Positions 21,164 to 37,010 are shown, counted from the stretch's first letter. The stretch is 64,000 nucleotides of DNA from a bacterium HR10 (GCA_002923315.1 BEHM01000001.1:56506-120505); one strand, 5' to 3'. Numbers and translations are program-made. The notes: generated by a model from the sequence alone, not told the origin.

Positions 21164-21745
21164 TCAGGATGAGGACCGTCGCAAGGGCCTCGATTCGGGA
21201 GCGAGTCGCGCGAGAGCCTCCTCGACGAGGCGCCGACAGGAGGGGCAGAAGGCGTTCGATTTGATGTCCACGTGCTCGATGGAGTTTGAGAAGTGCATGA
21301 CGCAATCGAAGGTCGAGCAGTGGATGAGACCGAACGTGTGTCCCAACTCATGGAGCGCTTCCTTCTCGCAGCGCTCCAGGAAGAGTCGGCGATCCTCCGG
21401 CAGGCCGTAAAAGCGCTGGTCGAGCCGATGGACTGAGAGCACGGCCGCCGCTCCCCCAAGCTGCGCCTCCCCAAAGACGAACGTGAGGATGGGGATGAAG
21501 AGGTCCACGTCCGTCACGCCGAGCACCTTCACGGCGGGATTTCGGTGCCCTCGAACCAGTTGCGCGAGCAGCGTCGTGGAATGGTACTGCTGGCGGAGCG
21601 GGTGATAGGCGGCGTCCAACTCGATCGGATGGTCACGAATGCGACAGGAGACGGGGAGCGTCTCCGGCAAGACGAGCGCGAGGAACTCGAGGACGTCCGT
21701 GTCCACGTTCCCGATCGGGACCAGCTCGATGAGCGCCCGCGACAC
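21164..21745 (-). CDS. amzA: archaemetzincin-family zinc metalloprotease
   Basis: The sequence HELGHTFGLIHCSTFDCVMH...(16)...CPSC fits the archaemetzincin signature HExxHxxGx3Cx4CxMx17CxxC. Its start lies 12 bp downstream of the sigma-54 activator gene. Confidence 0.65.
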   Translation of the reverse strand: MSRALIELVPIGNVDTDVLEFLALVLPETLPVSCRIRDHPIELDAAYHPLRQQYHSTTLLAQLVRGHRNPAVKVLGVTDVDLFIPILTFVFGEAQLGGAAAVLSVHRLDQRFYGLPEDRRLFLERCEKEALHELGHTFGLIHCSTFDCVMHFSNSIEHVDIKSNAFCPSCRRLVEEALARLAPESRPLRRSSS

Positions 21746-21757
21746 GATCGCTCCTCG

Positions 21758-23119
21758 TCATACCGGCGAATCGGGTTTGAGCTGATACTTGCGAATCTTA
21801 TTGTAGAGCGTCACGCGATCAATGCCGAGCAACCGCGCGGCCTGCGAGATGTTCCACCTCGTCTCCTGCAGGATCCGCTGGATGTGCTGCCGCTCGACCT
21901 CGGCGAGCGTCTTTCCCACCGGCTGTCCGCGCGCTTCGTTCACCTGCAAGGGCAGGTCTTCGGGGCGGATCTCCCGTCCGCGGCAGACGAGCACCGCGCG
22001 CTCGATGGCATTTTGCAGCTCGCGCACGTTTCCCGGCCAGTCGTAGCGCTCCAACAGCGCCAGGGCTTCGGGCGAGATGCCGAGGATCGGCTTGTTCATG
22101 CTCTGCGCGAACTTCTTGAGGAAATGCTCGGCCAGAAGCGGGATGTCCTCCCGCCGCTCGCGCAGCGGCGGGATGGTGATGGAGAAGACGTTGAGGCGAT
22201 AATACAGGTCCTCGCGGAATCTCCCCTCGGCGACCAGGGCTTCCAGGTCTTTGTTCGTCGCCGCGATCAGACGGAAGTCCACGGGGATCGGCGTATTGCC
22301 GCCGACGCGAAAGATCTTCTTCTCCTCGAGCACGCGCAGCAGATCCACCTGCGTCTTGAGGCTGATGTCGCCGATCTCGTCCAGAAAGAGCGTCCCTCCA
22401 TCGGCCAGCTCGAATTTCCCCTTGCGCCGATAATGGGCGCCGGTGAAGGCGCCCTTCTCATGGCCGAACAGCTCGCTCTCGATCACCCCTTCGGCCAGAG
22501 CGCCGCAGTTGACGATGACGATCGGCATGTAGCGGCGGGGACTGTTGGCGTGAATGGCGCGGGCGACCAACTCCTTGCCCGTCCCGCTCTCCCCGCGGAT
22601 GAGGACCGTCGTATCGGACATGGCGACGAGGCGAATCTGTTCGAGCACTCGCTGAATGGCTGCACTCTGTCCGACGATCTCATGGAACAGCGCCATCTCC
22701 TGAATCCGCTCGCGCAGCCGGACGTTCTCGGCCACCAAGCGCTTCCGCTCGACGGCGTTTCGGATGATGTGCTCCAGCTGATCGGGATCGAAGGGCTTCA
22801 CGATGTAATCGTAAGCACCCTGCTTCATCGCCTCCACGGCCGTTTCGACCGAAGCGTAAGCCGTCATGATGATGATGGAGGCCTCCGGGGCGATCTCCCG
22901 AATGCGCCGCTGCAGTTGCAGTCCGTCCATTCCGGGCATCTTGATATCAATGAGGAAGATGTCGTAGCTCGACTCGGCCAGCTTCTGCAAGGTCTCCTTC
23001 CCCGATCCGGCGACGTCCACCGTGTATCCCTCCTCGCGGAGCCAGTTCCCCAGGGATTCCCGCACGATGGCCTCGTCGTCCACGATCAAAATGCGGATCG
23101 CGCTTTTGGATACCGTCAT
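21758..23119 (-). CDS. sigma-54-dependent response regulator (NtrC/ZraR family: REC-AAA+-HTH)
   Basis: It has a receiver (ILIVDDE...), an AAA+ Walker A (GESGTGKE), the sigma-54 contact motif GAFTGA, and a C-terminal Fis-type HTH. A 4-bp overlap with the upstream kinase gene indicates coupling. Confidence 0.9.
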   Translation of the reverse strand: MTVSKSAIRILIVDDEAIVRESLGNWLREEGYTVDVAGSGKETLQKLAESSYDIFLIDIKMPGMDGLQLQRRIREIAPEASIIIMTAYASVETAVEAMKQGAYDYIVKPFDPDQLEHIIRNAVERKRLVAENVRLRERIQEMALFHEIVGQSAAIQRVLEQIRLVAMSDTTVLIRGESGTGKELVARAIHANSPRRYMPIVIVNCGALAEGVIESELFGHEKGAFTGAHYRRKGKFELADGGTLFLDEIGDISLKTQVDLLRVLEEKKIFRVGGNTPIPVDFRLIAATNKDLEALVAEGRFREDLYYRLNVFSITIPPLRERREDIPLLAEHFLKKFAQSMNKPILGISPEALALLERYDWPGNVRELQNAIERAVLVCRGREIRPEDLPLQVNEARGQPVGKTLAEVERQHIQRILQETRWNISQAARLLGIDRVTLYNKIRKYQLKPDSPV

Positions 23120-24798
23120 AGCCTGCTCTCCATGTGGTGAGGCGCGTCTCCGGAGAAGACCTCGAAGGCGCGATCAGTCTGATCCTCCGCTCCCGTCGGC
23201 GGGGTGAGTGGGAGCCGGAGGGTGAACGTCGTCCCGTGCCCGAGCGCGGACTGCACGTGGATATCCCCCCCGTGCCGGTGAAGGATGCTGAGCACGACGG
23301 AGAGCCCGAGGCCGAGGCTCCCCTCCTTCTCCTTCGTCGTGAAGAAGGGTTCGAAGATGCGCCGTTGCGTCTCTTCATCCATCCCGACGCCGTTGTCGCG
23401 GATCGCGATCTCAACCCGCTGCGCCTCAGGGAGGAAACGCGAGGTGACGGTGAGCATGCCTTCTTCTGGCCGCACCGCTTCGCAGGCATTGATCAGGAGC
23501 GCGACCAGCGCTTGCCGCATCTGCTGTCCGTCGCAGACGACGGGCGGCACGTCCGGATCGAGTTGAACCTCCGTCTGCAGGCTCATCAGCTCGATCTTAT
23601 GCTGAATCAGGCGGAGCGATTGACGGATGAGTTCGTTGACATCATGCGGCTGGAAGTGCGCGCGCGAGGGGCGGACGAATTGCAAGAGGTTCTTCACGAT
23701 CTCCCCGCAGCGGGCCGATTCGCTGGCGATCATCTCCAGATACTGGCGCGCATTGGCGAGGTCCTCGGGCGAGAACCCGTGATCCCCCATCTTCTTGAGC
23801 AGGAGCTTGGCGGTCGTGAGGATGCCGGAGAGGGGGTTGTTGATCTCGTGAGCGACGATGGCGGCGAGTTTCCCGATGGAGGCCATGCGCTCGGCGTGCA
23901 TCATCTGCTCGTGCGTGCGTCGCAGCTCGGCCGTCTTCTCCGCCACGCGCTCCTCCAGGGTGCGCGCCCAGCTCGTCAGCTCCTCATGAGCGCGCTTCAA
24001 CTCCTCGGTCATGGCGTTGAATGACGCCGCCAACTCGCCCAGTTCGTCCCGCGCGGTGAGCGGGATCTTATGGTCGAGGTCGCCAGAGGCGACGCGCTCG
24101 GTCCCCCGCTTCAGGTGCCGGATCGGGACATGGATCATCACGGCGGTGACGGCCACGACAACGAGCGCGACAAAGAGGATGCTCCCCAGGAAGAGGAAGA
24201 AGAGCTGGCGCTGCCCTTCCGCGATGGCCGCGTCCACCGGGGCGAGCGAGAGCGTCACGTCCAACACGCCGAGCACCGATTGCGCCGGCGAGTGCGCGTG
24301 GCAGGAGGCCGTGTAACATCCCGGTTCGTTCTCAATGGGATTGATGAGTCCCAAGATGCGCTCTCCGCGCTCTCCGAGGTACACGCGGACGCGATCCGGA
24401 CGATCCAGGCGAACAAGCGGCTGCTCCTGCGCATGGCAGCCGTAGCAGGCCTCGGCGCGCTTGTCCACGAACGTATTCACCTCGCGCGCATCAGTGGAGA
24501 AGCTGATCCGACCCTCTTTGTCGAAGATGCGGATCTTGTGAATCCCGGGCTGCGCGCCGATGGTGAGGAGCGTGTGATAGATCTCATCCCGATGGTTCTG
24601 CAGCATGCTGTAGCGGAGCCCCCGCTTGATGACGTCGCTCGTGCGATCCGCGCTGGCGATGGTCATCTGCTCCAGGTCGCGCTTGTGCAGCCGGAGGGTT
24701 TGGTAGCCGAGCAGCGAGAAGACAAACGCCATGCTCGCGATGAGCCAAAGGGTCAGCTTCACGCTCACGCTCGATGTCCAGCGTCGCCACCCCCTCAT
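23116..24798 (-). CDS. sensor histidine kinase with haem-c-motif periplasmic domain (NtrB/ZraS-like HisKA)
   Basis: I chose the start at MRGWRRW (24798). The roughly 170-aa periplasmic segment between its two TM helices contains CYGCH (CxxCH) and CYTASCH (Cx4CH). It also has HAMP, an H-box (AHEINNPL) and HATPase_c. Confidence 0.8.
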   Translation of the reverse strand: MRGWRRWTSSVSVKLTLWLIASMAFVFSLLGYQTLRLHKRDLEQMTIASADRTSDVIKRGLRYSMLQNHRDEIYHTLLTIGAQPGIHKIRIFDKEGRISFSTDAREVNTFVDKRAEACYGCHAQEQPLVRLDRPDRVRVYLGERGERILGLINPIENEPGCYTASCHAHSPAQSVLGVLDVTLSLAPVDAAIAEGQRQLFFLFLGSILFVALVVVAVTAVMIHVPIRHLKRGTERVASGDLDHKIPLTARDELGELAASFNAMTEELKRAHEELTSWARTLEERVAEKTAELRRTHEQMMHAERMASIGKLAAIVAHEINNPLSGILTTAKLLLKKMGDHGFSPEDLANARQYLEMIASESARCGEIVKNLLQFVRPSRAHFQPHDVNELIRQSLRLIQHKIELMSLQTEVQLDPDVPPVVCDGQQMRQALVALLINACEAVRPEEGMLTVTSRFLPEAQRVEIAIRDNGVGMDEETQRRIFEPFFTTKEKEGSLGLGLSVVLSILHRHGGDIHVQSALGHGTTFTLRLPLTPPTGAEDQTDRAFEVFSGDAPHHMESRL

Positions 24799-24814: not shown

Positions 24815-26392
24815 TCACGGCCGATGACACACCGCGCATTCCTCCTGCGCGCTGAAGGAGGTCTTCCCGTCATGACATCGTCCGCAATGTCGCGCGTCGT
24901 GCCAGTCGCGCGCGGGACGCGACGAGGCCTCCCCCTCGACCTTCAGGATGTGGAACGGCTCACGATGACACACGGTGCAGTCCGGTCGCTCCCAGTTGAT
25001 GTGCGAAGCATGTCGGAACGTGACCGGCCCCGGGCTCCCCTCCCCCTGCGGGAACGTGACGTCCGGTGGGATGTTCAATCGTTCCAGCCCTTCGGCGATG
25101 TTCGGCTCTTCTTCGAGGCGAGACGGAGAGGCGAGAGCCCGCTCGCGATAGGACAGGCCGCTGTAGGCCACGCCGAGGGCGCCGAAGAAGACGATTCCGC
25201 CGAGGATCAGGATCAGAGGTGTCGTCCCGATCCACGGTCTTCGGAGAACGGCGACGGCCGGTGGGACTGCGACCTCCCGCTCCATCTCCGGAAAGACGGG
25301 CAGATATTTCACCGCCAACCCGAACAGGGCGAATCCCAGTGCTACGATCATGAAGGTCACCGAGAGCTCGGTCCAGCTTGGGAAGTACGAGACGCCGGAG
25401 GAGGCCTCCATCCCCGTGATGCTCACGTTCAACCGGTTCATGATGAAGCCCAGGACGACCAGGAGGGCGGAGACGAACAGGCCGAAATGGTCCGTCCGAA
25501 CGCGGCGCACGCTCAGCAGCAGCATGGGACCGATCACGCCGAGCATCATCTCGGCCAGGAACATCCGCGCCTCGTAGGTCGGCTCCAAGACGTGAGCGAG
25601 TGCACCGCGCCCGACCAGATCCTGAACCTTCAGCACCAGATACACGGCCAGCGCGACGACGATCACTTTGCCCAGATCGGTGAGCAGATCAATCTCCAGT
25701 CGTTTCCGGAATGCCCGGTAGCTCAGGAACGACTCGAAGATGGTCATCGCGCACCCGAGCGCGATGGCCGAGATGAAGAAGAAGACGGGCAGAAGCGGCG
25801 AGTACCAGAGCGGATGCAGCTTCTCCGGCACGATCAGATAGAGCGAACCGAGCGAGGATTGATGAAGCGTCGAGAGGATGACGCCGAGAATGACCAATGG
25901 TACCGTCAGCGCGTGCAGGATCCGAAGTGGCCTTTGAAGTCTCAAGCGCTCGAACACCATGGGGCTGAATTCCAGTGCGAGCACTGTCGTGTAGAGCATG
26001 ACGCACCAGGCCACCTCGAACATCACCGAGTGGGGATTCCACATGACCAGCGGATGCCAGATGCGATACGGGCGTCCCAGATCAAAGAGCAGGGCCACAA
26101 TGACCAGCAGGTACCCGAGGAAGGCCGTGAGGATCGTCGGGCGAATGATCGGGCGAAATCGCTCGATGTTGAAGATGTAGACGACGGCGCTGATGGTGAA
26201 TCCTCCGGCGGCCAGCGCGACCCCGCAGAGGACGTCGAAGCCCACCCACAGGCCCCATGGGAAGGCATCGCTCAGGGCCGTGCTCGCTCCCAATCCTCCG
26301 GTGAACCGGACGACCGTGCTGTAGAGGCCGGCACCCAAGATGACCAGAAACACCAGCTGCCAGAAACCAGGCCGTCGCAGGCGCCACCTCAT
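24815..26392 (-). CDS. NrfD/PsrC-family polytopic membrane subunit fused to a C-terminal cytochrome c7-like trihaem domain
   Basis: I chose the start at MRWRLRRPGFW (26392), preceded by AGGGAGG. It has about 10 TM helices of the NrfD type. The C-terminus (VTFRHASHINWERPDCTVCH...CGRCH...CAVCH) resembles PpcA-type trihaem cytochromes. Confidence 0.7.
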   Translation of the reverse strand: MRWRLRRPGFWQLVFLVILGAGLYSTVVRFTGGLGASTALSDAFPWGLWVGFDVLCGVALAAGGFTISAVVYIFNIERFRPIIRPTILTAFLGYLLVIVALLFDLGRPYRIWHPLVMWNPHSVMFEVAWCVMLYTTVLALEFSPMVFERLRLQRPLRILHALTVPLVILGVILSTLHQSSLGSLYLIVPEKLHPLWYSPLLPVFFFISAIALGCAMTIFESFLSYRAFRKRLEIDLLTDLGKVIVVALAVYLVLKVQDLVGRGALAHVLEPTYEARMFLAEMMLGVIGPMLLLSVRRVRTDHFGLFVSALLVVLGFIMNRLNVSITGMEASSGVSYFPSWTELSVTFMIVALGFALFGLAVKYLPVFPEMEREVAVPPAVAVLRRPWIGTTPLILILGGIVFFGALGVAYSGLSYRERALASPSRLEEEPNIAEGLERLNIPPDVTFPQGEGSPGPVTFRHASHINWERPDCTVCHREPFHILKVEGEASSRPARDWHDARHCGRCHDGKTSFSAQEECAVCHRP

Positions 26393-26471: not shown

Positions 26472-27305
26472 TCATGACGAATTCGTTGAGTCGGATGCCG
26501 AGGATGATCCCGATGGCTCCGGGAGATCACGCGGCGGTTCTCCGGAGTCGCGTCCTCGCTCCTGGCGCTCTCGGCGTTGCACCTCTTGGCGCCGATTCGT
26601 GATCCACCAGATGCCTCCGAGCAGAACGCCCCCGACGATGACGAAGTTGGGGATCTTCTGCAAGACCTGCCACGTCAGCAGGGGGAGCGGCTCCCGGAGC
26701 AGATCCGTTCGGTAGCCCAGGCGCTCGAACGGGACATCCGAGAGCAGCAGGACCGAGGTTCCACCGACTTCCTCCAGGCCGTAAATCCTCGGCACGTACT
26801 TCTGCGGGTGAGCGCGAAGTCGCGCGCGGGCCTCCTCGATCAGCTCCTGACGATCCCCGAACTTCGTCGCTCCCGTGGGACAGACTTCGGCGCATGCCGT
26901 CGGTCGCCCTGCCACGAGGCGATCGGCACACAGATCGCACTTTCGGATGCGCGGCAGGATCTTCCGCCACTCATACTTCGGGATCCCGAAGGGGCATGCC
27001 AGCATGCAATAGCGGCATCCGATGCACCGCTCTTCGTGATAGATGACCGGGCCGGCCGCCGTCTTCTCCAACGCGCCGACCGGACAGACGGACGCGCACG
27101 TCGGGACCTCGCAGTGCATGCAGAGCTGGCGGACGAATCGTCCCCCGCGCTTCTTCACGACCGTATAGGTTTGGTCCGACAGCCGATCCTCCAAAAAGTG
27201 CGTCGCTGTCGGGGGGAGCCGGTTCCGCTCCTTGCACGCTTGGTAGCAGGCGCCGCATCCGATGCACAAGGTCGCATCAAAGAGGAGGCCCTTTTTGCTG
27301 CCCAT
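26472..27305 (-). CDS. 4x[4Fe-4S] ferredoxin-type subunit (NrfC/HybA/PsrB-like) with a C-terminal TM anchor and no signal peptide
   Basis: There are four Cys clusters (CIGCGACYQAC, CMHCEVPTCASVCP, CIGCRYCMLACP, CDLCADRL...CAEVCP) and a C-terminal helix (IVGGVLLGGIWWI). The start is the second ATG (27305), 6 nt after GGAGG. Confidence 0.8.
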   Translation of the reverse strand: MGSKKGLLFDATLCIGCGACYQACKERNRLPPTATHFLEDRLSDQTYTVVKKRGGRFVRQLCMHCEVPTCASVCPVGALEKTAAGPVIYHEERCIGCRYCMLACPFGIPKYEWRKILPRIRKCDLCADRLVAGRPTACAEVCPTGATKFGDRQELIEEARARLRAHPQKYVPRIYGLEEVGGTSVLLLSDVPFERLGYRTDLLREPLPLLTWQVLQKIPNFVIVGGVLLGGIWWITNRRQEVQRRERQERGRDSGEPPRDLPEPSGSSSASDSTNSS

Positions 27306-27555
27306 ACGCATCCTCCACTAGGAGGCGATGCAATTTCCATTCCACGCCTGGATCGTGAGGTCGCTTTCAGCAGCCGGCCACTGAGAGCCGTCCGGTCAAG
27401 CGGTTACAGCAGGGTGGCTCCCTCCTCTCATCCCCCGCGACTGCGCGCGAGGGAGAGGGGTGGGGCAAATCACTCGCTTCCTGAGGCGCGATTCGCGCCT
27501 CCGGCGAGGCTTCGACCTCAAGTGAGGGTCGGCAAAACGCCTTCCTTCGCTCGCT

Positions 27556-28248
27556 TCACCCCTCGGCTGGATGCGGGCTGCGCAGGAATGTTCGGGTGAA
27601 CTCCTCCCAACTGGCTTCATCCAGAGCCTCCAGGACGCCATCGGTCCACTGCCCGCCGTCCTGCAGGACGTGTCCGAGAGCCGCCTGCGGCATCGGCCGC
27701 CACGTGAGGAACTCCTTGAAGCGTTCGATCTCGCACTGGAGCCACGCCCGAGCTTCCTCGGCGACCAGCAGATGGCGTAAGTGCGCCGCCAGGTTCTTCG
27801 GCGTCAGCGTGCAGATCCATCCATCTTCGTACGGATCCATTCGCCCCGTCTCTGGCTGGCGCATGAGGATCTCATTGACCGCGCTCACCACTCCATCGAG
27901 CGGGGCGCGGAAGACGGCCCGTCGGCCCCCCTGCGTGATGGCGAAGAGCGGATCACCCCGCCGCACCATGACGCCGACTTTCGGCAAGTCCACGGCATCC
28001 ACGCGCCCGATGGCTCGACGCGCGAACTCATCCATGCCGACGAATGTCCGTCCGCTCGGTTCCAGGCGCACCCACGTGTGCCCTTCGTCCAGGAAGAGAC
28101 CGGCAGGGATGGAGACGGTCTCGAAGGCGAGCGTCGGACGCAGCGCCGGTCGCCTCACGGGACGTCCCTGTCGGGCCTCAGCCCATTGGACGACGGAATC
28201 CACGAGGATGAATCCGATGATCGTGAGAATGACAAAGAGAGCGACCAT
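27556..28248 (-). CDS. membrane-anchored glycine-cleavage-H-like (GcvH-fold) protein without the lipoyl-lysine
   Basis: It has an N-terminal TM (MVALFVILTIIGFILV). The GcvH-like core reads HTWVRLE...VGMDEFA...VDLPKVG...PYEDGWICTL. The position aligned to the lipoyl-Lys (ESVKA in GcvH) reads TQGGRRA. A strong RBS (GGAGGTGA) precedes the start. Confidence 0.6.
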   Translation of the reverse strand: MVALFVILTIIGFILVDSVVQWAEARQGRPVRRPALRPTLAFETVSIPAGLFLDEGHTWVRLEPSGRTFVGMDEFARRAIGRVDAVDLPKVGVMVRRGDPLFAITQGGRRAVFRAPLDGVVSAVNEILMRQPETGRMDPYEDGWICTLTPKNLAAHLRHLLVAEEARAWLQCEIERFKEFLTWRPMPQAALGHVLQDGGQWTDGVLEALDEASWEEFTRTFLRSPHPAEG

Positions 28249-28251
28249 AGT

Positions 28252-29184
28252 TCACCTCCTCTCCGGAGATCGCCTCCGAGGCGCACTCACCGTGCGCCCG
28301 ATCCGTGGCTGCAAGAACCGCGCGATCACCTGTTCCCATCGCGCGGGACCAAGGACTTCCATGAGCGATTCCATCGCAGCCCGCGTCAGCATCTCCTGCG
28401 CCGTGCACTCCCCTTCAAGGGGAACGCCCCCATCTTGGAGCGTGCGGCCTGCGGCAGAGACTTCTGGGGGCGTCCCCAAAGCGCGCAAGGCCGCGCGAAC
28501 CGCTCGGTGCAGCTTCGAAACTTCCCGCTCATACCAAGAACGCGCCTGCTCCCCATAGAGCAGGTGCTTCAAACTCTCCCGCAAACGTTCCGGTCGCAAC
28601 AGTAGCAGCCATCCGTCCCCATACGGATCGTGATTGATGAGGGAGGGGTATCGCGTGAGCCGCTCGTTGAGCTGAAGGATGACACCCGTCAGAGGAGCGG
28701 ACAGAATGATCTCCCCGGCCTGATGCGCCAGCTTACCCAGCGGGCGTCCGGCGATCACGCGCGCGCCCACTTCCGGAAAGCTCACCTGATAAATCCGCCC
28801 GAGGAGCTTCTGTCCGAAATCATCCAGTCCGATTCGCACGTCCCCCCGCCGCTCGATGCGCGCCCACACATGCGTCGGATGGTAGAAGAGCGCCTCCGCC
28901 ATGTGGAAGCCACCTCGGCTGAAGAGGCGGTGAGACGCCGTGCGCTCACCGTGAGATCGTGAGCTTCCCTCCTCACCGGCGATCTCCCTCGTCCGCTCCC
29001 GAAGGGCGCGGTCAAAAGGGCAATGGTCGCATTCGTAGTCGCGATCGCAAAGTTTGTAGTCCACGATCCCCGCCAACATCCACACGCACTGGAGCACGGG
29101 AGCAGCACCCTCGCGCTCGATGGAGAGCGGATGAGCTCCAGGGCCGGTGGCCTCGGTCGGTCCTCTCGACAGCACCTCGTCCAT
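28252..29184 (-). CDS. GcvH-like protein with an N-terminal Cys-rich motif
   Basis: I chose the start at ATG 29184 (MDEVLSRG), preceded by GGGAGGG. The Cys motif is CVWMLAGIVDYKLCDRDYECDHCPFD, followed by a GcvH-like core (THVWARIE...IGLDDFGQKLLG...HDPYGDGWLLL). The raw ORF start at 29331 is a TTG inside a regulatory palindrome, which is why I rejected it. Confidence 0.55.
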   Translation of the reverse strand: MDEVLSRGPTEATGPGAHPLSIEREGAAPVLQCVWMLAGIVDYKLCDRDYECDHCPFDRALRERTREIAGEEGSSRSHGERTASHRLFSRGGFHMAEALFYHPTHVWARIERRGDVRIGLDDFGQKLLGRIYQVSFPEVGARVIAGRPLGKLAHQAGEIILSAPLTGVILQLNERLTRYPSLINHDPYGDGWLLLLRPERLRESLKHLLYGEQARSWYEREVSKLHRAVRAALRALGTPPEVSAAGRTLQDGGVPLEGECTAQEMLTRAAMESLMEVLGPARWEQVIARFLQPRIGRTVSAPRRRSPERR

Positions 29185-29210
29185 TGTCCCTCCCTCAACT
29201 CTCCCTTGAG

Positions 29211-29226
29211 GGCAATCGATGTGCCG
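29211..29226 (-). promoter_or_regulatory. candidate sigma-54 promoter (minus strand: CGGCAC-ATCGA-TTGCC) for the GcvH-like operon
   Basis: On the minus strand there is GG at -24 and GC at -12 with 5-nt spacing. The predicted TSS is near 29200, about 16 nt before ATG 29184 and spanning its RBS. Confidence 0.4.
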
Positions 29227-29317
29227 CGCGACGTCCTCTCCGGCGGCGTGGAAGTCCTTCGATCCGAAGAACATGCGCGCGCTCTGACCAGTGGCGCGGC
29301 CTTCTCGCGCTGCGTCC

Positions 29318-29332
29318 GTTGAATTCTTCAAC
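29318..29332. promoter_or_regulatory. palindromic operator/enhancer site 1 (GTTGAA-TTC-TTCAAC)
   Basis: A perfect 6-3-6 inverted repeat. The extended 18-bp sequence CGTTGAATTCTTCAACGC is identical to site 3. Confidence 0.45.
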
Positions 29333-29384
29333 GCGAGCCGAGGGCCAGCTGGGGCAAGTCTCAGCGCATCGCGCGCTTAGTCAT

Positions 29385-29399
29385 GTTGAAGAATTCAAC
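29385..29399. promoter_or_regulatory. palindromic operator/enhancer site 2 (GTTGAA-GAA-TTCAAC, the reverse-complement form)
   Basis: A perfect inverted repeat. Its centre is 67 bp from site 1 and 22 bp from site 3. Confidence 0.45.
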
Positions 29400-29406
29400 A
29401 CCTGTC

Positions 29407-29421
29407 GTTGAATTCTTCAAC
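29407..29421. promoter_or_regulatory. palindromic operator/enhancer site 3 (GTTGAA-TTC-TTCAAC)
   Basis: A perfect inverted repeat, about 61 bp upstream of the -24 element of the plus-strand sigma-54 promoter. Confidence 0.45.
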
Positions 29422-29474
29422 GCACGGGGCACTCCTTCCCGGTTTAACTTCAGCAGAATCAATGTCCCTGCCTC

Positions 29475-29490
29475 TGGCATGCGGCTTGCA
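29475..29490 (+). promoter_or_regulatory. sigma-54 promoter TGGCAT-GCGGC-TTGCA for the C_GCAxxG-dihaem gene
   Basis: A near-consensus -24 (TGGCAY) and -12 (TTGCA) with 5-nt spacing. The predicted TSS is near 29500. RBS GGAGGGA lies at 29524-29530 and ATG at 29537. Confidence 0.5.
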
Positions 29491-29536
29491 CGAAGGAAAA
29501 AGCGGAAGTGCTGATCTCATCATGGAGGGATGAGCA

Positions 29537-30340
29537 ATGAGGAAGACGCTGACGCGAAAAGAGTTCCTCACGTTGACGACCAAATGTGCCACATGCGCCG
29601 CCGTCGGTGCAGCTGGGCTGAGCCTCCTCGGAAGGGAAGGGATCGCCCAGATGGATCTTCCGCCGTGGCCGTGGCCCTATCGAAAGCTCGATCCCGAGTA
29701 CGTGCGCAAGCTCGGGCACGAGGGGTATTGGGAGAAAGGATATGGCTGCGCCTATGGCGCTTTCAGAGCCATCATCATCCCATTGCGCGAGGCGGTCGGG
29801 TATCCCTATACGATGATCCCCACGGAGCTCATGATCTGGGGGCACGGGGGCGTCGTCGGATGGGGCGGAACGTGTGGGGCGCTCCTTGGGGCCAGCGCCG
29901 CTATTCAGCTCGTGTGCGATAAGCCGACGGCCGATCGGCTCATCCATGAATTGCAGGGGTGGTACACGCAAGCGCTCCTGCCGACGGACATCAGCAACGA
30001 GTACGCGCAGACAGGGCAGTTCTTCGTCCAGAAGTACACGCGACCACTCCCGCAGAATGCCGCAGGCTCACCCCTGTGTCACATCTCGGTGACCTTGTGG
30101 TGCGAGCGTTCGGGATTCACCGCTTCCTCACTTGAACGCAAAGAGCGCTGCGGCCGGCTCACAGGTGATGTCGCCGCTCGCGCCGTGGAGCTATTGAATC
30201 AATGGGCTGATGGTCAATTCCAGAGCATCTATGTCCCACCGGAGTCCATCGCGACCTGCCTCACGTGTCACGGGGATAAGGGGCTGGACAACGTGAAGGC
30301 CAAGATGAACTGCACGCAGTGCCACGCGCCGCATCCGTGA
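29537..30340 (+). CDS. C_GCAxxG_C_C-family putative redox protein fused to a C-terminal dihaem cytochrome c, with a Tat-like (RK) signal peptide
   Basis: The signal is MRKTLTRKEFLTLTTKCATCAAVGAAG. The family motifs are GYGCAYGAF and GGTCGALLGA. Two CxxCH motifs (CLTCH, CTQCH) sit in the last 40 aa. Confidence 0.65.
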   Translation: MRKTLTRKEFLTLTTKCATCAAVGAAGLSLLGREGIAQMDLPPWPWPYRKLDPEYVRKLGHEGYWEKGYGCAYGAFRAIIIPLREAVGYPYTMIPTELMIWGHGGVVGWGGTCGALLGASAAIQLVCDKPTADRLIHELQGWYTQALLPTDISNEYAQTGQFFVQKYTRPLPQNAAGSPLCHISVTLWCERSGFTASSLERKERCGRLTGDVAARAVELLNQWADGQFQSIYVPPESIATCLTCHGDKGLDNVKAKMNCTQCHAPHP

Positions 30341-30483: not shown

Positions 30484-32331
30484 TTAGGAGACTCCTCGAA
30501 CGGGGGGCGCGCTCCCGTTCAGGAGCGCTTCATCGGGGAGCTCCAGTCGGAGCTCTTGGAGGCTTCCGAGCAAAAGCTCACGCACTTCGGCAGAGCGTGA
30601 GGCGGCGAGCGCCTGGCGAACGACCTCGCGCACGCGCGTCAGCTCGCATGCTCGCACGAAGTCCTTGATGAGCGGGATCGCGCGCGGGCGCATGCTCAAG
30701 ATACGGGCTCCCAAACCCAGCAGGACCAGCGCATGCAGCGGATGCGCGGCCATCTCGCCGCAGACTTCAAGGGGGCGGCCTGCGCGCTCGGCCGCCTGGA
30801 TCACGTGCCGCAGAGCGCGCAGCACGGCCGGATGCAGCGGATCATAGAGCGAGGCCACGCGATCGTTATCCCGATCCACCGCCAGCAGGTACTGGATGAG
30901 ATCGTTGGTCCCCAGGCTGAGGAAATCCGCCACGGCAGCCAGCTCATCGGCGAGCCACACGGCGGCAGGCGTCTCGATCATCACGCCCACGGGAAGACGA
31001 TCCGGCGCGGCGATCCCTTCTGCGCGCAGTTCACGGCATGCGGTCTGAAGCAGGTGTCGGACCTGCTCGACTTCCTCCAAACTCGTGATCAGGGGGAGGA
31101 CGAGGCGCAGATTCCCGAAGGCGGCGGCCCGCACGATGGCGCGCAATTGGGTTTTGAGAACCTCCGGCGCGCGCAGCGAGAACCGAATGGCGCGGAGCCC
31201 GAGCGCCGGATTCCGCTCGGGGAGCCATGGCTCCGAAGACTCGGACTCCATCTGCCGGTCGCGCAGCGCATGAAGGGTGCCGAGCGCGGCCATCTGATTT
31301 TCGTCCCAATCCACCGTGCGAATGGCGACCCCGTCGCGCCCGGCCACTTCCGCGGCCTGACGATACGCCTCCAGTTGCAGCTCTTCCGAGGGCAGTTCCG
31401 GAGCTGCCTGCAGGAAGAGAAATTCCGTGCGGAGCAAGCCAATCCCGCATGCGCCGAAACGGTGCAGGTCATCCAATTCAGAGAGACGCTCGATGTTCGC
31501 GCGGATGGTGATCGGAACGCCGTCGCGCGTCATCGTGGGGAGAGGGGCGCGTGCCTGCCATCGGATCCAATGCTGTTCGCGCTCCTGGCGCTGCCGCTCA
31601 TAATGCTGAAGGACATCTGGGGAGGGACGGACGAAGACGAGCCCTCGCGTCCCATCCACGAGGACGAGCGCCTGATCTTCGATCTGCGCGAGCGCCCCAC
31701 GAAGACCCGATACGGCCGGGATGCCCAGCCCACGGGCGAGAATGGCCACGTGCGACGTCCATCCCCCTGTGCCGAGGATCAAGCCCGCGATGCGCTGCGG
31801 ATCGAGTTCCCCAAGCAGGCTTGGCGGGAGCGTCTCGCTCACCAGGACCGCACTCTCCGGAAAGGCGCAGGTGGAGCGGTCCCCCGAGAGCACCCTGAGC
31901 AATCGGTTCGCCACATCTTCGATATCACTGCCACGCTCGCGCAAATCATCGTCCTTGATCTCCGCATAGATGGCCAGGATGCGATCAGTGACCAGTTTCA
32001 CCGCCCATTCGGCGTTGACGGCGTTGGTGCGGATGAGGCTTTCGATCTCGCCGAGGATCCCCGCATCCTCCAACATCAGCACGTGCGCATCCAGGATATA
32101 GGCGTGTTCTTTCCCCAGGGCGTGCTCCATGCGTTGCCGCAGGACGCGCAATTGCTCGCGCGCGATGCCCACGGCCTTGTGGAAGCGGGCCACCTCGGAC
32201 TCGATCTCCTGAGGAGCGAGCCGCCGGCGGAAGATCACTCGTCCGCGCCAAGGCGAGTGCACGGCCGGTCCCCACCCGATCCCCGGCGAGATGCCCAGTC
32301 CGCGGAGTATGATCTCCGAATTCGCCGTCAC
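30484..32331 (-). CDS. ptsI: phosphoenolpyruvate-protein phosphotransferase (PTS enzyme I)
   Basis: Full-length EI similarity, with the active His context GGWTSHVAILARGLGIPAV and a PEP-utilising C-terminal domain. Confidence 0.9.
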   Translation of the reverse strand: MTANSEIILRGLGISPGIGWGPAVHSPWRGRVIFRRRLAPQEIESEVARFHKAVGIAREQLRVLRQRMEHALGKEHAYILDAHVLMLEDAGILGEIESLIRTNAVNAEWAVKLVTDRILAIYAEIKDDDLRERGSDIEDVANRLLRVLSGDRSTCAFPESAVLVSETLPPSLLGELDPQRIAGLILGTGGWTSHVAILARGLGIPAVSGLRGALAQIEDQALVLVDGTRGLVFVRPSPDVLQHYERQRQEREQHWIRWQARAPLPTMTRDGVPITIRANIERLSELDDLHRFGACGIGLLRTEFLFLQAAPELPSEELQLEAYRQAAEVAGRDGVAIRTVDWDENQMAALGTLHALRDRQMESESSEPWLPERNPALGLRAIRFSLRAPEVLKTQLRAIVRAAAFGNLRLVLPLITSLEEVEQVRHLLQTACRELRAEGIAAPDRLPVGVMIETPAAVWLADELAAVADFLSLGTNDLIQYLLAVDRDNDRVASLYDPLHPAVLRALRHVIQAAERAGRPLEVCGEMAAHPLHALVLLGLGARILSMRPRAIPLIKDFVRACELTRVREVVRQALAASRSAEVRELLLGSLQELRLELPDEALLNGSAPPVRGVS

Positions 32332-32618
32332 GATCCCAATCGCTCCTCCTCTTCACCGAATTTCGACTCGATCAACCGGCAGATGGCTTCGATCGCCTCC
32401 ACCTCGTCCTCTCCGGATGTGGTGATGTCCAGATGCGTCCCCGCCGATGCCGCCAGCAGCAGGACGCCGAGGATGCTCTTGGCGTCCGCCGTCTGTCCCG
32501 TATCGGAGCGGGCGAGCGTGATCGCGCTGCGGAACCGATTGGCCGCCTGCACGAGCTTGGCGGCTGCGCGCGCATGCAATCCCAGACGGTTGGCCACCTG
32601 CACCGTTCGTCGCTGCAT
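32328..32618 (-). CDS. ptsH: phosphocarrier protein HPr
   Basis: An His15 context (NRLGLHARAAAKL) and a Ser46 region (GQTADAKSILGVL). Confidence 0.85.
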   Translation of the reverse strand: MQRRTVQVANRLGLHARAAAKLVQAANRFRSAITLARSDTGQTADAKSILGVLLLAASAGTHLDITTSGEDEVEAIEAICRLIESKFGEEEERLGS

Positions 32619-32624
32619 CGCCGG

Positions 32625-33038
32625 CTATCGCTTCGCGGGCGTGAGGATCTCGCTGGCCAAATAGATGTTCTTCTGCCCCTGTTCTTTGACCTTGCGCGCT
32701 ACGGTGAGCAGATCGTCGTTCGGGTCTTGATTGGCGAGCTTGAGAATCATGGGCAGATTGACGCCGGTGACGATCTCCACCGGCTCGACGCCCAGGAAGG
32801 TGGCCGCGATATTGGTCGGCGTTCCTCCGAACATATCCGTCAGCAACAGCACGCCGCGCCCGCTGTTGACCCGCTCGATGGCCCGACGGATCGTCTCGCG
32901 CGCGACCTCCACATCATCATGCCAGCCGATGGAGACGGCCGTGATGTGGCTGATCTGACCGACGATCATCTCCGCGGCGTTCACCAGTTCCGTGGCCAGT
33001 TGTCCATGCGTGATGACGACGCCTCCGATGAGTCCCAT
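32625..33038 (-). CDS. PTS EIIA component, mannose/fructose family
   Basis: The sequence MGLIGGVVITHGQLA...LTDMFGGTP is the EIIA-Man fold with the phosphorylatable His in ITHG. Confidence 0.8.
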   Translation of the reverse strand: MGLIGGVVITHGQLATELVNAAEMIVGQISHITAVSIGWHDDVEVARETIRRAIERVNSGRGVLLLTDMFGGTPTNIAATFLGVEPVEIVTGVNLPMILKLANQDPNDDLLTVARKVKEQGQKNIYLASEILTPAKR

Positions 33039-33173
33039 CCTGCTTCCTCCGGCGTCGGCGAAGCGACGAACCGCTCGCCTCCCCGACGCATGCGCTCGAG
33101 CTCCGTGCCTTCCGTGCTTTCTTATTGTACCTCAAGGCGTCGGCTCGCGTCCTCATCGGGAGCTGCCGTGTGC

Positions 33174-34049
33174 TCAGAGTTTGTCTATATCCCGGTGCGT
33201 GACGCGAAGCTTATAGCCCTCGCGTCGCAGCACCCGCGCCAGCTCCTCGACGATCATCACCGACCGGTGGCGTCCTCCCGTACACCCGATCCCGATCGTC
33301 ACATAGCTTCGTCCCTCGCGCTGGTAACGCGGAAGAAGGAATCGGAGGAGGTTCTCCAGGTGCGCGATGGTCTCCATCGTATCCGGGTGCGCGCGCATGA
33401 AGTCAATGACGCGCGCATCTTGTCCCGAGAGCGGGCGCAGCTCGGGCACAAAGTGCGGGTTCGGCAGGAAGCGGACATCAAAGAGCAGGTCCAATCCCGG
33501 GGGAACGCCATGCTTGAACCCGAAGCTGAGGAGCGTGACCGTCATCTCCAGCAGCGCGTCAGCAGTGCCGAAGCGTTCGATCACGTAGCGGCGCAGCGTG
33601 TGCACCGTGTGCTCGGACGTGTCAATGATGAGGTCGGCGCGAGCGCGGATCTCTTGCAACGCCTCCCGTTCGCGCGCGATGGCCGTGGGCAGGTCCGTCT
33701 CGGCGTCGGCCAGCGGATGCGGACGTCGCGTCTCGGAGAAACGGCGCAGCAGGACCTCGGGGCTCGCCTCGAAGAAGATGATCCGCACGTTGGTCCCTTG
33801 CCGCCGCAACTCGTCGTAGAGGCGGGGGAAATCGGGGAGGAATTGGCGCTCGCGGATGTCAATGACGATGACGGCGCGACGGAGCGTCTCCGCGCTGGCG
33901 CGACACAATTCCACAAAGGGGGGGATCAGGTGAATCGGCAGATTGTCCACGCAGAAATATCCGAGGTCCTCGAAGGCCTTGACCGCCGAGGTCTTCCCCG
34001 AACCGCTCAAGCCTGTGAGGATGAGGATGTGAGGGGAAGCGAAAGCCAT
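33174..34049 (-). CDS. rapZ: RNase adapter protein RapZ (YhbJ)
   Basis: A Walker A (LTGLSGSGKTSA) and C-terminal GCTGGRHRS, the typical RapZ signature. Confidence 0.85.
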   Translation of the reverse strand: MAFASPHILILTGLSGSGKTSAVKAFEDLGYFCVDNLPIHLIPPFVELCRASAETLRRAVIVIDIRERQFLPDFPRLYDELRRQGTNVRIIFFEASPEVLLRRFSETRRPHPLADAETDLPTAIAREREALQEIRARADLIIDTSEHTVHTLRRYVIERFGTADALLEMTVTLLSFGFKHGVPPGLDLLFDVRFLPNPHFVPELRPLSGQDARVIDFMRAHPDTMETIAHLENLLRFLLPRYQREGRSYVTIGIGCTGGRHRSVMIVEELARVLRREGYKLRVTHRDIDKL

Positions 34050-34052
34050 GCG

Positions 34053-35015
34053 TCACGAGGATTCGAGCGCGTCCCCGGCGACCAGCGCATCGTGCGCGCG
34101 CACGAACTGCCGCATCGCATCAATGCCCCGGCGTTTCAACAGGTGATTGCGCACGGCCACCTCGACGAGCGTCGTGAGATTGCGCCAGAACGTGACGGGA
34201 AGGCGAATCAGGGGGATCGAGATGTCCAGCAGGCGGAGCGTCTCCTCCTGCAAGCCCAGGTGGTCATAGTCTCGCTGCGGATCCCAGCGCTCGAACGCGA
34301 TGGCCAGATCCACCGAGGCTTCTTCGGCGAGCGCCGCGACGCCGAACAATTCTCGAATGTCCAGGATGCCGAGCCCCCGGATCTCCATGTGCCCCCGCGC
34401 GCGTTCCGGAGCCAGGCCGATCAACCGATCCGATCCGATGGCGCGCACCTCGACGACATCATCGGCGACGAGCCGATGCCCGCGCTGAATGAGATCGAGC
34501 GCACATTCGCTCTTGCCCAGTCCGGATTCGCCGAGCAGCAATACGCCGACGCCGAAGACCTCGACCAGGACGCCGTGCATCCAGCACCGGGGGGCGAGAA
34601 CCCGCTGCAGAAACTCCGTGAGCTTCAGAATCGCCGTCGAGCTGAGGCGCGAGGAGACCAGGACCGGAACGCGATGCCGCTCGGCCGCGTGGAGGAATTC
34701 CGGCGGGGGGGTGAGCCCCTTGGTCACGAGGACGCACGTGATCGCCTCCCAGGGGAGGTGCTCGATGGCGCGGTGTCGCTCCGCCGGCGAGAGATGGTGC
34801 AGGAAGGTCACCTCGCTCTGCCCCACGATTTGGATCCGCCCCGCGTGCACATAGTGCGTGAATCCCGCCAGCGCCAGCCCGAGCTTTTGAATGCGCGGCG
34901 AGCGGATCGTCCTGGTCACACCCTCAGCGCCGACGATCACGCGCAAGTCCAGATCGGCTGGCGCGCCGGTGAGCAGCTCGGCGACGGTGATCTCGGGCGT
35001 GAGGGGAGCGGTCAT
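34053..35015 (-). CDS. hprK: HPr kinase/phosphorylase
   Basis: I chose the start at MTAPLTPEITVAEL (35015), preceded by GAGGG. It has a Walker A (GESGLGKSE) and the HprK signature LVADD...EIRGLGI. Confidence 0.85.
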   Translation of the reverse strand: MTAPLTPEITVAELLTGAPADLDLRVIVGAEGVTRTIRSPRIQKLGLALAGFTHYVHAGRIQIVGQSEVTFLHHLSPAERHRAIEHLPWEAITCVLVTKGLTPPPEFLHAAERHRVPVLVSSRLSSTAILKLTEFLQRVLAPRCWMHGVLVEVFGVGVLLLGESGLGKSECALDLIQRGHRLVADDVVEVRAIGSDRLIGLAPERARGHMEIRGLGILDIRELFGVAALAEEASVDLAIAFERWDPQRDYDHLGLQEETLRLLDISIPLIRLPVTFWRNLTTLVEVAVRNHLLKRRGIDAMRQFVRAHDALVAGDALESS

Positions 35016-35022
35016 CGCGCCC

Positions 35023-35538
35023 TCAGGGTTCGATGAGTCCGAGGTGACCATCGGTGCGCTTGTAGAGGACGGCCACCCGATCGGTCTCCGCATTGCGGAA
35101 GACGAGGAAGTGATCGTTCGATTTCAAGAGCAGCTCGGCCGCCTCGTCCGGCGTCAAGGGCTTCACCGAATATCGGGGCGTGCGCACGATGCGCACCTCT
35201 GGCGCCGAAGATTCCGCGGGCAACGTCTTCACGAGCTTGCGCGTCGCCCGTCGGCGGGCCGCGAACTTCTCCTTCTGCTTGAGCGTTTGTCGCAGGAGGC
35301 GATCAATGGCCTCGGTGACCGAGCTGTAGAGGTCGTCCGTCTCGGCCGTCCCCGTGAACTGATGATCTCGCCAGGTGACGAGGATCTCCGTCAGGAACCG
35401 ATGCTTCTCAGCAGCGAGGATGACGTGCACCTTGGCCGCGTCATCGAGGACGCGGCCGATCTTCTCCAGTGCCCGCCGAAGGCGCTTCTCGATCGTGGGC
35501 GTCAGCTCCACATTTCGCGTCGTGAGTTCCAGATTCAT
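35023..35538 (-). CDS. hpf: ribosome hibernation promoting factor (long form)
   Basis: The N-terminal sigma-54-modulation-protein fold (MNLELTTRNVELTP...) plus a C-terminal dimerisation extension. Its start overlaps the rpoN stop (ATGA). Confidence 0.85.
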   Translation of the reverse strand: MNLELTTRNVELTPTIEKRLRRALEKIGRVLDDAAKVHVILAAEKHRFLTEILVTWRDHQFTGTAETDDLYSSVTEAIDRLLRQTLKQKEKFAARRRATRKLVKTLPAESSAPEVRIVRTPRYSVKPLTPDEAAELLLKSNDHFLVFRNAETDRVAVLYKRTDGHLGLIEP

Positions 35539-37010
35539 CCTCCCCTCCCCGCATGAAGTAGCGCGCGATCCCGCGAGCTGGGAATCCCCAGCTGCTTCCG
35601 ATACTTCGTCACCGTGCGGCGCGAGAGTCGAACGCCCTCGCGCTCCAGCAAGCGCACCAGATCATCGTCCGTCAGCGGCGCTCGGGGATCCTCCTGCTCG
35701 ATGAGCTTTTGCAGGCGCAGCTTGAGGACGCGCGTGGAGATCTGCTCGCCGTTCTCCTTCCGCACCCCTTCGGTGAAGAAACGGCGCAGTTCGATGAGCC
35801 CCTGAGGGGTATCAATGTACTTGTTGCTCACGATGCGGCTGACGGTCGAGAGCGAGAGGCCCAGCTCGGCCGCGATGTCCTTGAGCAGCATCGGCTTCAG
35901 ATATTCGGGGCCGTAGTCGAGGAAGTCGCGCTGTCGCCGAACGATGGCCTCACAGACGCGGTAGATCGCCCGACGGCGATGCTCGATGTTCCTCAGCAAC
36001 TCGACAGCCGAGCGAAATCGCTCCCGCACGAAATCCCGCGCCTCTTTCGGGAGCTGCCCGCTCTTGAGGAGGCGCCGATAGTAGGGGTTGATCCGCAGGT
36101 GCGGCAGGCCCTCGTCGTTGAAGAGGATGACGTAGCGATCGTCCACCTTCACGATGCTCGCCTCGGGCACGATGTACATCGGCGGCGCAGCGCCGAGATT
36201 CCGTCCCGGGCGCGGGTCCAATTGCCGGATCACCTCCAGCTCCTCGCGCACCGTCTGCAGCGGGAGGCCGAGGCGTTCGGCCAGCTCCGGGAGCCGATGC
36301 GGATGCAAATCCCACAGATGATCGCGCACCAGGCGCGCCGCCAGCCGATCCTCCCATCCCCGCGCGCGAAGCTGCAACAGCAAACACTCGCGCAGATCGC
36401 GCGCGCCGATACCCGGCGGATCCAGGCTCTGCACGAGCGCGAGCGCGCGCTCGACGACCTCGTCGGACCATCCCCCAAGGGCTTTGATCTCCTCCAGCGT
36501 CGCCTCCAAATACCCGTCGCTGTTCAGACACCCGATGATCGCCTCCGCCGCCTGCCGCACCTCATCGTCCGATGGGGCCATGACGCGGAGTTGCTCCAAC
36601 AGCGCCTCGTACAGGGACGGACGGCTCGGCGTCAGCTTCTCCAGAAGCGAGACCTCCTCCTCCGGCGAAGGCTCCGCCCACGTCGTGCGCGGAGCCGGAT
36701 CGAGATAGTTCTGGAAGAAGTCCTCGAAATCCACTTCCTCGAAGGGATCTCGCGGCTTGGGTTCCAGCTCCACTGGTTCGGACGATCCATGGGCTTCCTC
36801 ACGCGCTTCGCGCTCAGTATTGCGCAGCGCGGCCTCCGCCGAGGGAACCACCTCGACCGCTTCCTCCAGCACGGGATTCTCTCGCAGCTCCTGCCGGATG
36901 AGGGTGAGCAACTCCAGCTTGGTCATGGCCAGCAGGTCAATACGCTGCTTGAGCTGCGGCGTCAGCGTCAGACGCTGCGTCAGTCCCGGCGCGATCTTGA
37001 CCGACGGCAT
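35535..37010 (-). CDS. rpoN: RNA polymerase sigma-54 factor
   Basis: An N-terminal activator-interacting region I (LTQRLTLTPQLKQRIDLL) and a C-terminal RpoN box (ARRTVTKYR). Confidence 0.9.
   Translation of the reverse strand: MPSVKIAPGLTQRLTLTPQLKQRIDLLAMTKLELLTLIRQELRENPVLEEAVEVVPSAEAALRNTEREAREEAHGSSEPVELEPKPRDPFEEVDFEDFFQNYLDPAPRTTWAEPSPEEEVSLLEKLTPSRPSLYEALLEQLRVMAPSDDEVRQAAEAIIGCLNSDGYLEATLEEIKALGGWSDEVVERALALVQSLDPPGIGARDLRECLLLQLRARGWEDRLAARLVRDHLWDLHPHRLPELAERLGLPLQTVREELEVIRQLDPRPGRNLGAAPPMYIVPEASIVKVDDRYVILFNDEGLPHLRINPYYRRLLKSGQLPKEARDFVRERFRSAVELLRNIEHRRRAIYRVCEAIVRRQRDFLDYGPEYLKPMLLKDIAAELGLSLSTVSRIVSNKYIDTPQGLIELRRFFTEGVRKENGEQISTRVLKLRLQKLIEQEDPRAPLTDDDLVRLLEREGVRLSRRTVTKYRKQLGIPSSRDRALLHAGRGG

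Follow-up and report, generated by a model that had tools for sequence, protein, structure and literature searches.

Three palindromic sites between divergent sigma-54-type promoters

We analysed a 64-kb stretch of the bacterium HR10 genome (GCA_002923315.1, BEHM01000001.1:56506-120505; hereafter the window), in which a 352-bp spacer at 29185-29536 separates two divergently transcribed genes and carries three palindromic sites flanked by sigma-54-type promoters. The minus-strand gene (28252-29184, ATG at 29184) encodes a GcvH-like protein of 310 amino acids with a Cys-rich N-terminus (C33, C46, C52 and C55) and no lipoyl lysine. It heads an operon that continues with HybA/HybB-like subunits, a histidine kinase, an NtrC-family response regulator and an M54 protein. 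The plus-strand gene (29537-30340) encodes a twin-arginine translocation (TAT)-signal C_GCAxxG protein with two C-terminal CxxCH motifs, which is related to split-Soret cytochrome c, its score against the profile of the latter being under the curated cutoff; we refer to it as the cytochrome gene. Site coordinates, promoters and genes are given in window numbering, and loci in relatives are labelled L004-L102.

The spacer contains three GTTGAA-N3-TTCAAC sites, none of which is assigned to a strand: the lone site 1 at 29318-29332 (GTTGAA-TTC-TTCAAC, GTTGAATTCTTCAAC; centre 29325), site 2, the first of a pair, at 29385-29399 (GTTGAA-GAA-TTCAAC, GTTGAAGAATTCAAC; centre 29392) and site 3 at 29407-29421 (GTTGAA-TTC-TTCAAC, again GTTGAATTCTTCAAC; centre 29414). 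Sites 1 and 3 have the 18-mer CGTTGAATTCTTCAACGC in common, and the centre-to-centre distances are 67 bp between sites 1 and 2 and 22 bp between sites 2 and 3. An earlier note on this DNA had delimited the same intergenic region and given the same palindrome coordinates, 18-bp core and spacings, all of which match the recomputed positions. The note also called each site a perfect 15-bp palindrome, which needs correction, as the sites are composed of 6-bp inverted arms (7 bp with the flanking bases) around a non-symmetric 3-bp centre.

When up to three mismatches were allowed, the motif was found in the three spacer sites and, elsewhere in the 64 kb, in one near-match with three mismatches at 58179, which is the sole exception to the earlier claim that the motif occurs nowhere else in the window. 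Seven strand-hits were counted in the 64 kb against 0.57 expected, and none of 100 shuffles equalled this number. One alternative reading is that the repeats are a dispersed element resembling repetitive extragenic palindromes (REP) or miniature inverted-repeat transposable elements (MITE), or else an RNA or DNA hairpin, with no role in activation. A dispersed repeat, named in the earlier note as one outcome that would overturn its proposal, was not what we observed: the motif is restricted to a single spacer in the 64 kb and to the orthologous spacer in relatives, and a metagenome scan matched the conserved operon only (see below). We therefore rejected a REP or other dispersed repeat on the basis of these uniqueness and co-occurrence data. 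The hairpin is suggested by sites 2 and 3, which are exact reverse complements in the window and may form a 15-bp stem with a 7-nt loop. Rfam returned no family at threshold in the spacer; below threshold it gave hairpin-type noise at 29388-29418, a mere consequence of the complementarity between sites 2 and 3. However, relatives do not keep this complementarity: site 3 has changed on its own in L005 and L024, and sites 2 and 3 are direct repeats in a lineage from rhizosphere samples. The sites also lie upstream of both inferred transcription starts, and no T-run follows the stem as in a terminator. A hairpin function was thus rejected on account of the lost pairing, and we regard it as extremely improbable that the repeats are a mobile or structural element of either kind.

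On both sides of the sites we found sigma-54-type promoters with GG and GC doublets exactly 10 nt apart. Within the window, TGGCAY-N5-TTGCW is matched perfectly only by the promoter of the cytochrome gene (plus strand, 29475-29490; TGGCAT-GCGGC-TTGCA). With the second G of the GG doublet set as -24, its inferred start is at ~29501, leaving a leader of 36 nt. The promoter of the GcvH-like operon (minus strand, 29226-29211; CGGCAC-ATCGA-TTGCC) has an inferred start at ~29200 and a 16-nt leader containing GGGAGGG. No match to a sigma-70 consensus was found in the spacer. The site centres lie at -87, -109 and -176 relative to the plus start and at -125, -192 and -214 relative to the minus start. 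The positions -87/-109 and -125, counted from the nearer promoter, are typical distances for enhancer-binding proteins (EBPs), and repeated dyad sites ~80-200 bp upstream of a -24/-12 promoter, as expected of an upstream activating sequence, are present at both promoters. Both promoters, proposed in the earlier note as a divergent TGGCAT-N5-TTGCA and CGGCAC-N5-TTGCC pair in an EBP layout, are located where the note had put them and are conserved, and the distances above agree with such a layout.

Conservation, geometry and distribution of the array

The nearest relatives of the locus were found in metagenome-assembled genomes of Acidobacteriota/Blastocatellia. For footprinting we compared five Acidobacteriota loci, namely the window, L004, L006, L005 and L024 (cytochrome identity 85-97%), the latter four of which carry the three sites and both promoters at the same positions. 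Among the 36 specified site positions, 81% of the columns are invariant, against 29% for the rest of the spacer (Fisher p = 4e-9), and the GGCA/TTGC positions of the promoters are invariant throughout (16/16). The palindromes are phylogenetic footprints. Site 1 is kept in all orthologous loci, with its right half TCAAC retained in 10/10 and 14 of 17 columns invariant; site 3 is the most drifted of the three (GTTGCGTTTTTCAAC in L024). Thirty sites from ten loci gave the consensus Y-GTT-K-A-R-N3-Y-T-C-A-A-C-R. The three-site layout also appeared in the AT-rich, Kryptoniota-type loci L007, L008, L011, L012 and L019, which possess the whole operon with a regulator of 62% identity.

Several other parts of the spacer are conserved as well. 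A TAAC...AATCAA block without assigned strand (29445-29462), in which AATCAA (29457-29462) is invariant, lies between site 3 and the plus promoter and, judged by its letters, may be a DNA-bending (IHF-like) element. We do not claim an IHF site at this position because the WATCAA half alone, which is half of the IHF consensus, is conserved. Further invariant blocks are GAAGTC (29251-56) and GCTTAG (29375-80). Beside the former, between the minus promoter and site 1, the five loci carry a short dyad (29258-29272), the symmetry of which persists though the letters change (CTTCG-ATC-CGAAG in the window, CTGAT-C-ATCAG in L024); it could be a chance feature or a site for an architectural protein.

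The arrangement of a lone site, an interval of 66-67 or 77-79 bp and then a pair, accompanied by -24/-12 promoters, was found in 21 orthologous loci from hot-spring and soil Acidobacteriota, the rhizosphere lineage and Kryptoniota, and a 22nd, rearranged locus (L101) has a reduced version. The spacing within the pair is 21-23 bp in all 21 three-site loci. The lone site stands 66-67 bp from the pair in 15 loci, which come from hot-spring Acidobacteriota, Kryptoniota and the rhizosphere lineage, and 77-79 bp from it in seven loci of soil Acidobacteriota, with unrelated sequence in between; no value between the two classes was seen among the loci examined. The gap of ~11 bp between the classes preserves rotational phase. 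Site 3 is 50-122 bp away from the GG of the cytochrome-side promoter, and site 1 is 84-118 bp away from that of the gcvH-side promoter. A gcvH-side GG-N10-GC at this distance is present in 15 of 18 loci and in 5/5 further loci, and the plus promoter is kept in ten of the 12 loci that have the cytochrome gene.

The array was always found with the operon for GcvH-like proteins, HybA-HybB-like (NrfCD) subunits, a putative haem-sensor kinase, an NtrC-family regulator and an M54 peptidase (hereafter the module). Among 80 reference-genome loci with a cytochrome homologue, only the nine with the module have the array; ~68 loci in Bacteroidota, Ignavibacteriota, Calditrichota and other phyla have neither. 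In the AT-rich, module-less loci L037, L056, L070 and L083, one or two weak near-matches precede the cytochrome gene; we dismissed them as background, such matches occurring at 0.10 per kb overall. A degenerate three-site pattern had ten matches on metagenome contigs, nine of which adjoin the GcvH-like/NrfCD module according to tblastn, the tenth (L084) being a near-identical, truncated copy of the L092 enhancer. Four of the ten matches belong to a third lineage from soil and rhizosphere samples (GC 0.55), in which no gene is transcribed divergently from the array. The sampled regulator orthologues (L094-L102; 73-88% identity) are all encoded in the same operon, with sites and GG-N10-GC upstream of its first gene (9/9).

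In module-less genomes of the Ignavibacteriota and Calditrichota type, a different sigma-54 activator gene (~42% identity to the regulator, other helix-turn-helix, HTH) is often located upstream of the cytochrome homologue (L009, L029, L042, L052, L053, L058, L060, L061, L064 and L073), and many of these homologues bear a type IX secretion system (T9SS) sorting domain. That the cytochrome gene often stands beside its own, different EBP gene suggests that it needs an EBP and that the regulator of the module has been borrowed in the present locus.

In the rearranged locus L101 (3266-6363 and 11272-12227), the GcvH-like gene is found downstream of the M54 gene with a TGGCAC-N5-GTGCC promoter and two sites of its own, spaced 22 bp apart. 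A single fusion protein of 819 amino acids combines NrfC and NrfD, and its gene retains a strong site flanked by two divergent -24/-12 promoters, of which the second (TGGCAT-N5-TTGC) faces a small open reading frame, an NrfA-like cytochrome c552 and a molybdopterin oxidoreductase. The array appears to belong primarily to the GcvH-like operon, the cytochrome gene being an optional second target. A stricter version of this view is that the sites are an enhancer of the GcvH-like operon only, and that the cytochrome promoter is served by another activator, or is constitutive or poised. The full array is indeed kept without a divergent gene in the rhizosphere lineage and most soil Acidobacteriota, and site 1 keeps a tight distance to the minus promoter (84-118 bp) in comparison with that between site 3 and the plus promoter (50-122 bp). 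On the other hand, the plus promoter matches the -24/-12 consensus excellently and is retained wherever gene and module occur together, no second EBP gene lies nearby in the window, and the site in L101 is likewise faced by a -24/-12 promoter, which belongs to another divergent cargo. We thus consider a one-sided enhancer quite improbable, a minority view prompted by the persistence of the array where the divergent gene is absent.

A candidate activator and its proposed mode of action

The response regulator gene (21758-23119, minus strand) encodes REC, AAA+ and HTH_8 domains, with D58, Walker A at 176 and GAFTGA at 223, and its AAA+ domain is intact. No other sigma-54-type AAA+ protein is encoded in the window, so that the activator singled out in the earlier note holds up, both as an intact protein and as the sole one of its kind. 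Its sequence is 100% identical to that of a protein from 'bacterium HR10', a hot-spring metagenome-assembled genome. Against curated NCBIfam equivalog cutoffs, the regulator scored 497 bits for AtoC (cutoff 714), 474 for ZraR (760), 455 for NtrC (559), 438 for the PEP-CTERM regulator (503), 397 for GlrR (763) and 376 for LuxO (800). As every score is under its cutoff, orthology to each of these was rejected, and the protein is a member of the NtrC family that matches no named orthologous group. Its closest solved structure is Aquifex NtrC1 (4l4u). The predicted recognition helix, GIDRVTLYNKI.KY, is identical in the regulator orthologues of Acidobacteriota and Kryptoniota; the unrelated EBPs encoded beside the cytochrome gene in module-less genomes have a different one. 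We infer that this regulator is the protein that would bind the three palindromes.

The adjacent gene (23116-24798, minus strand) encodes a HAMP histidine kinase with haem-c motifs in its periplasmic loop (~residues 33-197). No Pfam domain was detected in the loop, which contains C118-x-x-C-H and C161-x4-C-H-A-H, both strictly conserved in 11 orthologues from three lineages. Given this strict retention of CxxCH and Cx4CH, the kinase probably uses c-type haem to sense either the redox state of the periplasm or a haem ligand, and the loop is likely a previously undescribed c-type (di)haem sensor domain.

Putting these elements together, we consider it probable, from comparison of sequences, that the spacer is a bidirectional sigma-54 enhancer bound by the NtrC-family regulator encoded in the operon. 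The kinase would phosphorylate D58 of the regulator upon a periplasmic redox or ligand signal, the nature of which we propose from the haem motifs, and regulator dimers would bind the three sites (consensus Y-GTTKAR-N3-YTCAAC-R). The bound dimers are then predicted to assemble into an active AAA+ ring, which, by DNA looping, would remodel the sigma-54 holoenzyme poised at the two divergent promoters. The minus promoter would drive the GcvH-like/HybAB-like/kinase/regulator/M54 operon, resulting in positive autoregulation, and the plus promoter would drive the split-Soret-like dihaem cytochrome gene. Assembly of the ring on three sites and the use of the same bound protein at both promoters are put forward here as presumptive steps.

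Several observations weigh against this proposal. The minus promoter deviates from the consensus (C for T before GG, and TTGCC) and leaves a leader of just 16 nt. Three Kryptoniota-type loci have imperfect promoters, with a weak -12 element on both sides in L012 and L019 and GG-N9-GC on the minus side in L007. Intervals of 67 or 78 bp correspond to ~n + 0.4 helical turns, and site 1 and the pair thus lie on different faces of the DNA, unlike classic cooperative EBP sites. The search of the source genome for more copies of the motif spans 64 kb only. In addition, a third, internal sigma-54-type promoter, P3 (minus strand, 27344-27329; TGGAAT-GGAAA-TTGCA), lies 24 nt before the ATG of the NrfC-like gene and is a perfect TGGCAT-GGAAA-TTGCA in L005, L024 and L085; no GTTGAA-N3-TTCAAC occurs near it in the 245-bp gap (27306-27555). 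Through P3, expression of the kinase and regulator in the hot-spring clade may not depend solely on the enhancer, and, as P3 is conserved without a nearby palindrome, the simple model may not capture the full complexity of autoregulation there. Finally, the binder was assigned from co-localisation and HTH conservation only, and an EBP encoded elsewhere might take its place.

The gap that harbours P3 also contains the invariant blocks GATTTGCCCCAC and GCTTGA upstream of the promoter. Kryptoniota lack this gap, and in most loci from soil Acidobacteriota no P3 was found.

The point about the assignment of the binder can be extended to an alternative in which the palindromes bind another protein, such as a repressor, a global redox regulator or an EBP from elsewhere, and the local regulator acts at other sequences. 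The additional invariant blocks GAAGTC, GCTTAG and AATCAA in the spacer, as well as P3 with no palindrome nearby, would fit such a scheme. Nevertheless, we judged it to be without positive support and rather unlikely, as (i) the sites accompany the regulator and operon through four lineages and one gene rearrangement, (ii) no other transcription-factor gene is conserved in the module, (iii) invariance of the motif goes together with invariance of the HTH recognition helix, and (iv) sigma-54 promoters require an EBP, the positions of -87 to -125 and the 5-N3-5 dyad being suited to HTH_8 dimers.

The fixed spacing of the array invites a further, more speculative reading, to which we give a low probability. 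The pair is always 21-23 bp apart and the lone site is separated from it by either 66-67 or 77-79 bp, two classes that differ by ~one turn; on these grounds, the lone-plus-pair array might be a phase-locked template on which three bound dimers supply all six protomers of one ring. Such a template would make wrapped or bent DNA between site 1 and the pair obligatory. If this is the case, one ring could fire either way, and the spacer would be a portable bidirectional regulatory cassette that moved between phyla with its haem-sensing kinase and was joined to differing divergent cargo: a split-Soret-like cytochrome here, an NrfA-like cytochrome with a molybdoenzyme cluster in L101, and none in other lineages.

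The module, related systems and implications

The remaining genes of the module, all on the minus strand, encode a second GcvH-like protein (27556-28248; 230 amino acids, with an N-terminal membrane anchor and no lipoyl lysine), a 4Fe-4S protein of the HmcB/HybA/NrfC type (26472-27305), an NrfD/HmcC/HybB-like membrane subunit fused to a triheme cytochrome c7 domain (24815-26392) and, as the last gene of the conserved module, an archaemetzincin-family (M54) protein (21164-21745). The M54 gene is present in ten of 11 loci displayed (not called in L102), and tblastn detected it in more loci. The GcvH-like pair always stands ahead of the HybA/HybB-like pair with its c7 fusion and the M54 archaemetzincin-like protein. 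No description of the function of a module combining GcvH-like and NrfD proteins was found in the literature searched. Several Acidobacteriota genomes carry hypA or a complete [NiFe]-hydrogenase and maturation cluster downstream of the module (L094 12963-18678, L096 12078-12539, L098 10063-10476 and L102 9990-10385). These neighbours, together with the HybA/HybB-like subunits, hint at a link to hydrogen metabolism.

On the other side of the spacer, right downstream of the cytochrome gene, a complete PTS-Ntr (nitrogen-related phosphotransferase system)/rpoN neighbourhood occupies 30484-37010 on the minus strand and comprises lptB, rpoN, hpf, HPr kinase, rapZ, EIIA-Man, HPr and ptsI. The gene for sigma-54 itself (rpoN, 35535-37010, minus strand) encodes the Sigma54_AID, CBD and DBD domains in an lptB-rpoN-hpf-ptsN-rapZ cluster and lies ~6 kb from the array.

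Divergent sigma-54 promoters are also known for zraP-zraSR of E. coli and Salmonella, where ZraR sites lie between the promoters and the regulator is encoded in one of the two units, a layout reportedly described by Leonhartsberger et al. in 2001. The two systems are alike in that back-to-back -24/-12 promoters share inverted-repeat sites, and in that one unit encodes an NtrC-family two-component regulator with autoregulation and a periplasmic sensor. Nevertheless, the regulator here is not a ZraR orthologue (474 vs 760 bits) and has another recognition sequence, the sites are three in a lone-plus-pair arrangement, and the cargo is a redox module instead of a zinc-stress chaperone. At glnAp2, NtrC occupies two strong sites ~three turns apart, and a further dimer is recruited from solution. 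As at glnAp2 and in Aquifex NtrC1, tandem dimer sites ~100 bp upstream would nucleate an AAA+ ring that contacts sigma-54 by looping; in contrast, the paired sites described here are two turns apart, and the third lies at a fixed distance from them (66-67 or 77-79 bp).

In Desulfovibrio vulgaris, the orp operons with OrpR and the type III secretion operons of pDV1 with DVUA0100 are divergent sigma-54 operons with a cognate EBP (PMC4641369, PMC8359166). There, too, a shared upstream region serves for the co-regulation of two divergent operons, the EBP is encoded within or beside them, and the motif was likewise predicted by comparative genomics. However, OrpR and DVUA0100 are one-component regulators with other motifs, whereas the system described here, from Acidobacteriota and Kryptoniota, has two components, of which the sensor bears haem motifs. 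The upstream activating sequence of LuxO is given in a passage of PMC10162802, citing Lenz 2004, as TTGCAWWWTGCAA. It has the same dyad geometry as our sites, with 5-bp half-sites on either side of an A/T-rich 3-bp centre, and is likewise repeated upstream of a sigma-54 promoter (PMC10162802). The regulators have the same architecture of REC, AAA+ and HTH_8 domains, and the helix pattern (S/T)-x-hydrophobic-Y-x-K resembles LuxO residues proven critical (PMC11407668). Nevertheless, the half-site is TTGAA here and TTGCA in the LuxO sequence, the regulator is not a LuxO orthologue (376 vs 800 bits), and its putative targets are protein-coding operons instead of the Qrr small RNAs. The literature searched yielded no paper describing the motif or the module. 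The design, in which divergent sigma-54 promoters share activator sites, is well known; the recognition sequence and the strict geometry are not previously described.

As the architecture is a textbook one, we regard the result as a solid annotation and not as a conceptual surprise, its distinctive features being the phase-conserved three-site geometry and the spread across phyla. To our knowledge, almost no transcription regulation has been characterised in Acidobacteriota or Kryptoniota. The present analysis provides a testable set of regulator, operator and promoters for a two-component system that is widespread in Acidobacteriota and also present in Kryptoniota. The strict three-site geometry is a natural experiment on how rings of enhancer-binding proteins nucleate on DNA. 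The analysis also ties a probable haem-based redox sensor to a conserved and previously undescribed periplasmic electron-transfer module, in which GcvH-like proteins that are not lipoylated are combined with an M54 protein, a HybA/HybB-like complex bearing a c7 domain and, as an optional component, a split-Soret-like cytochrome.

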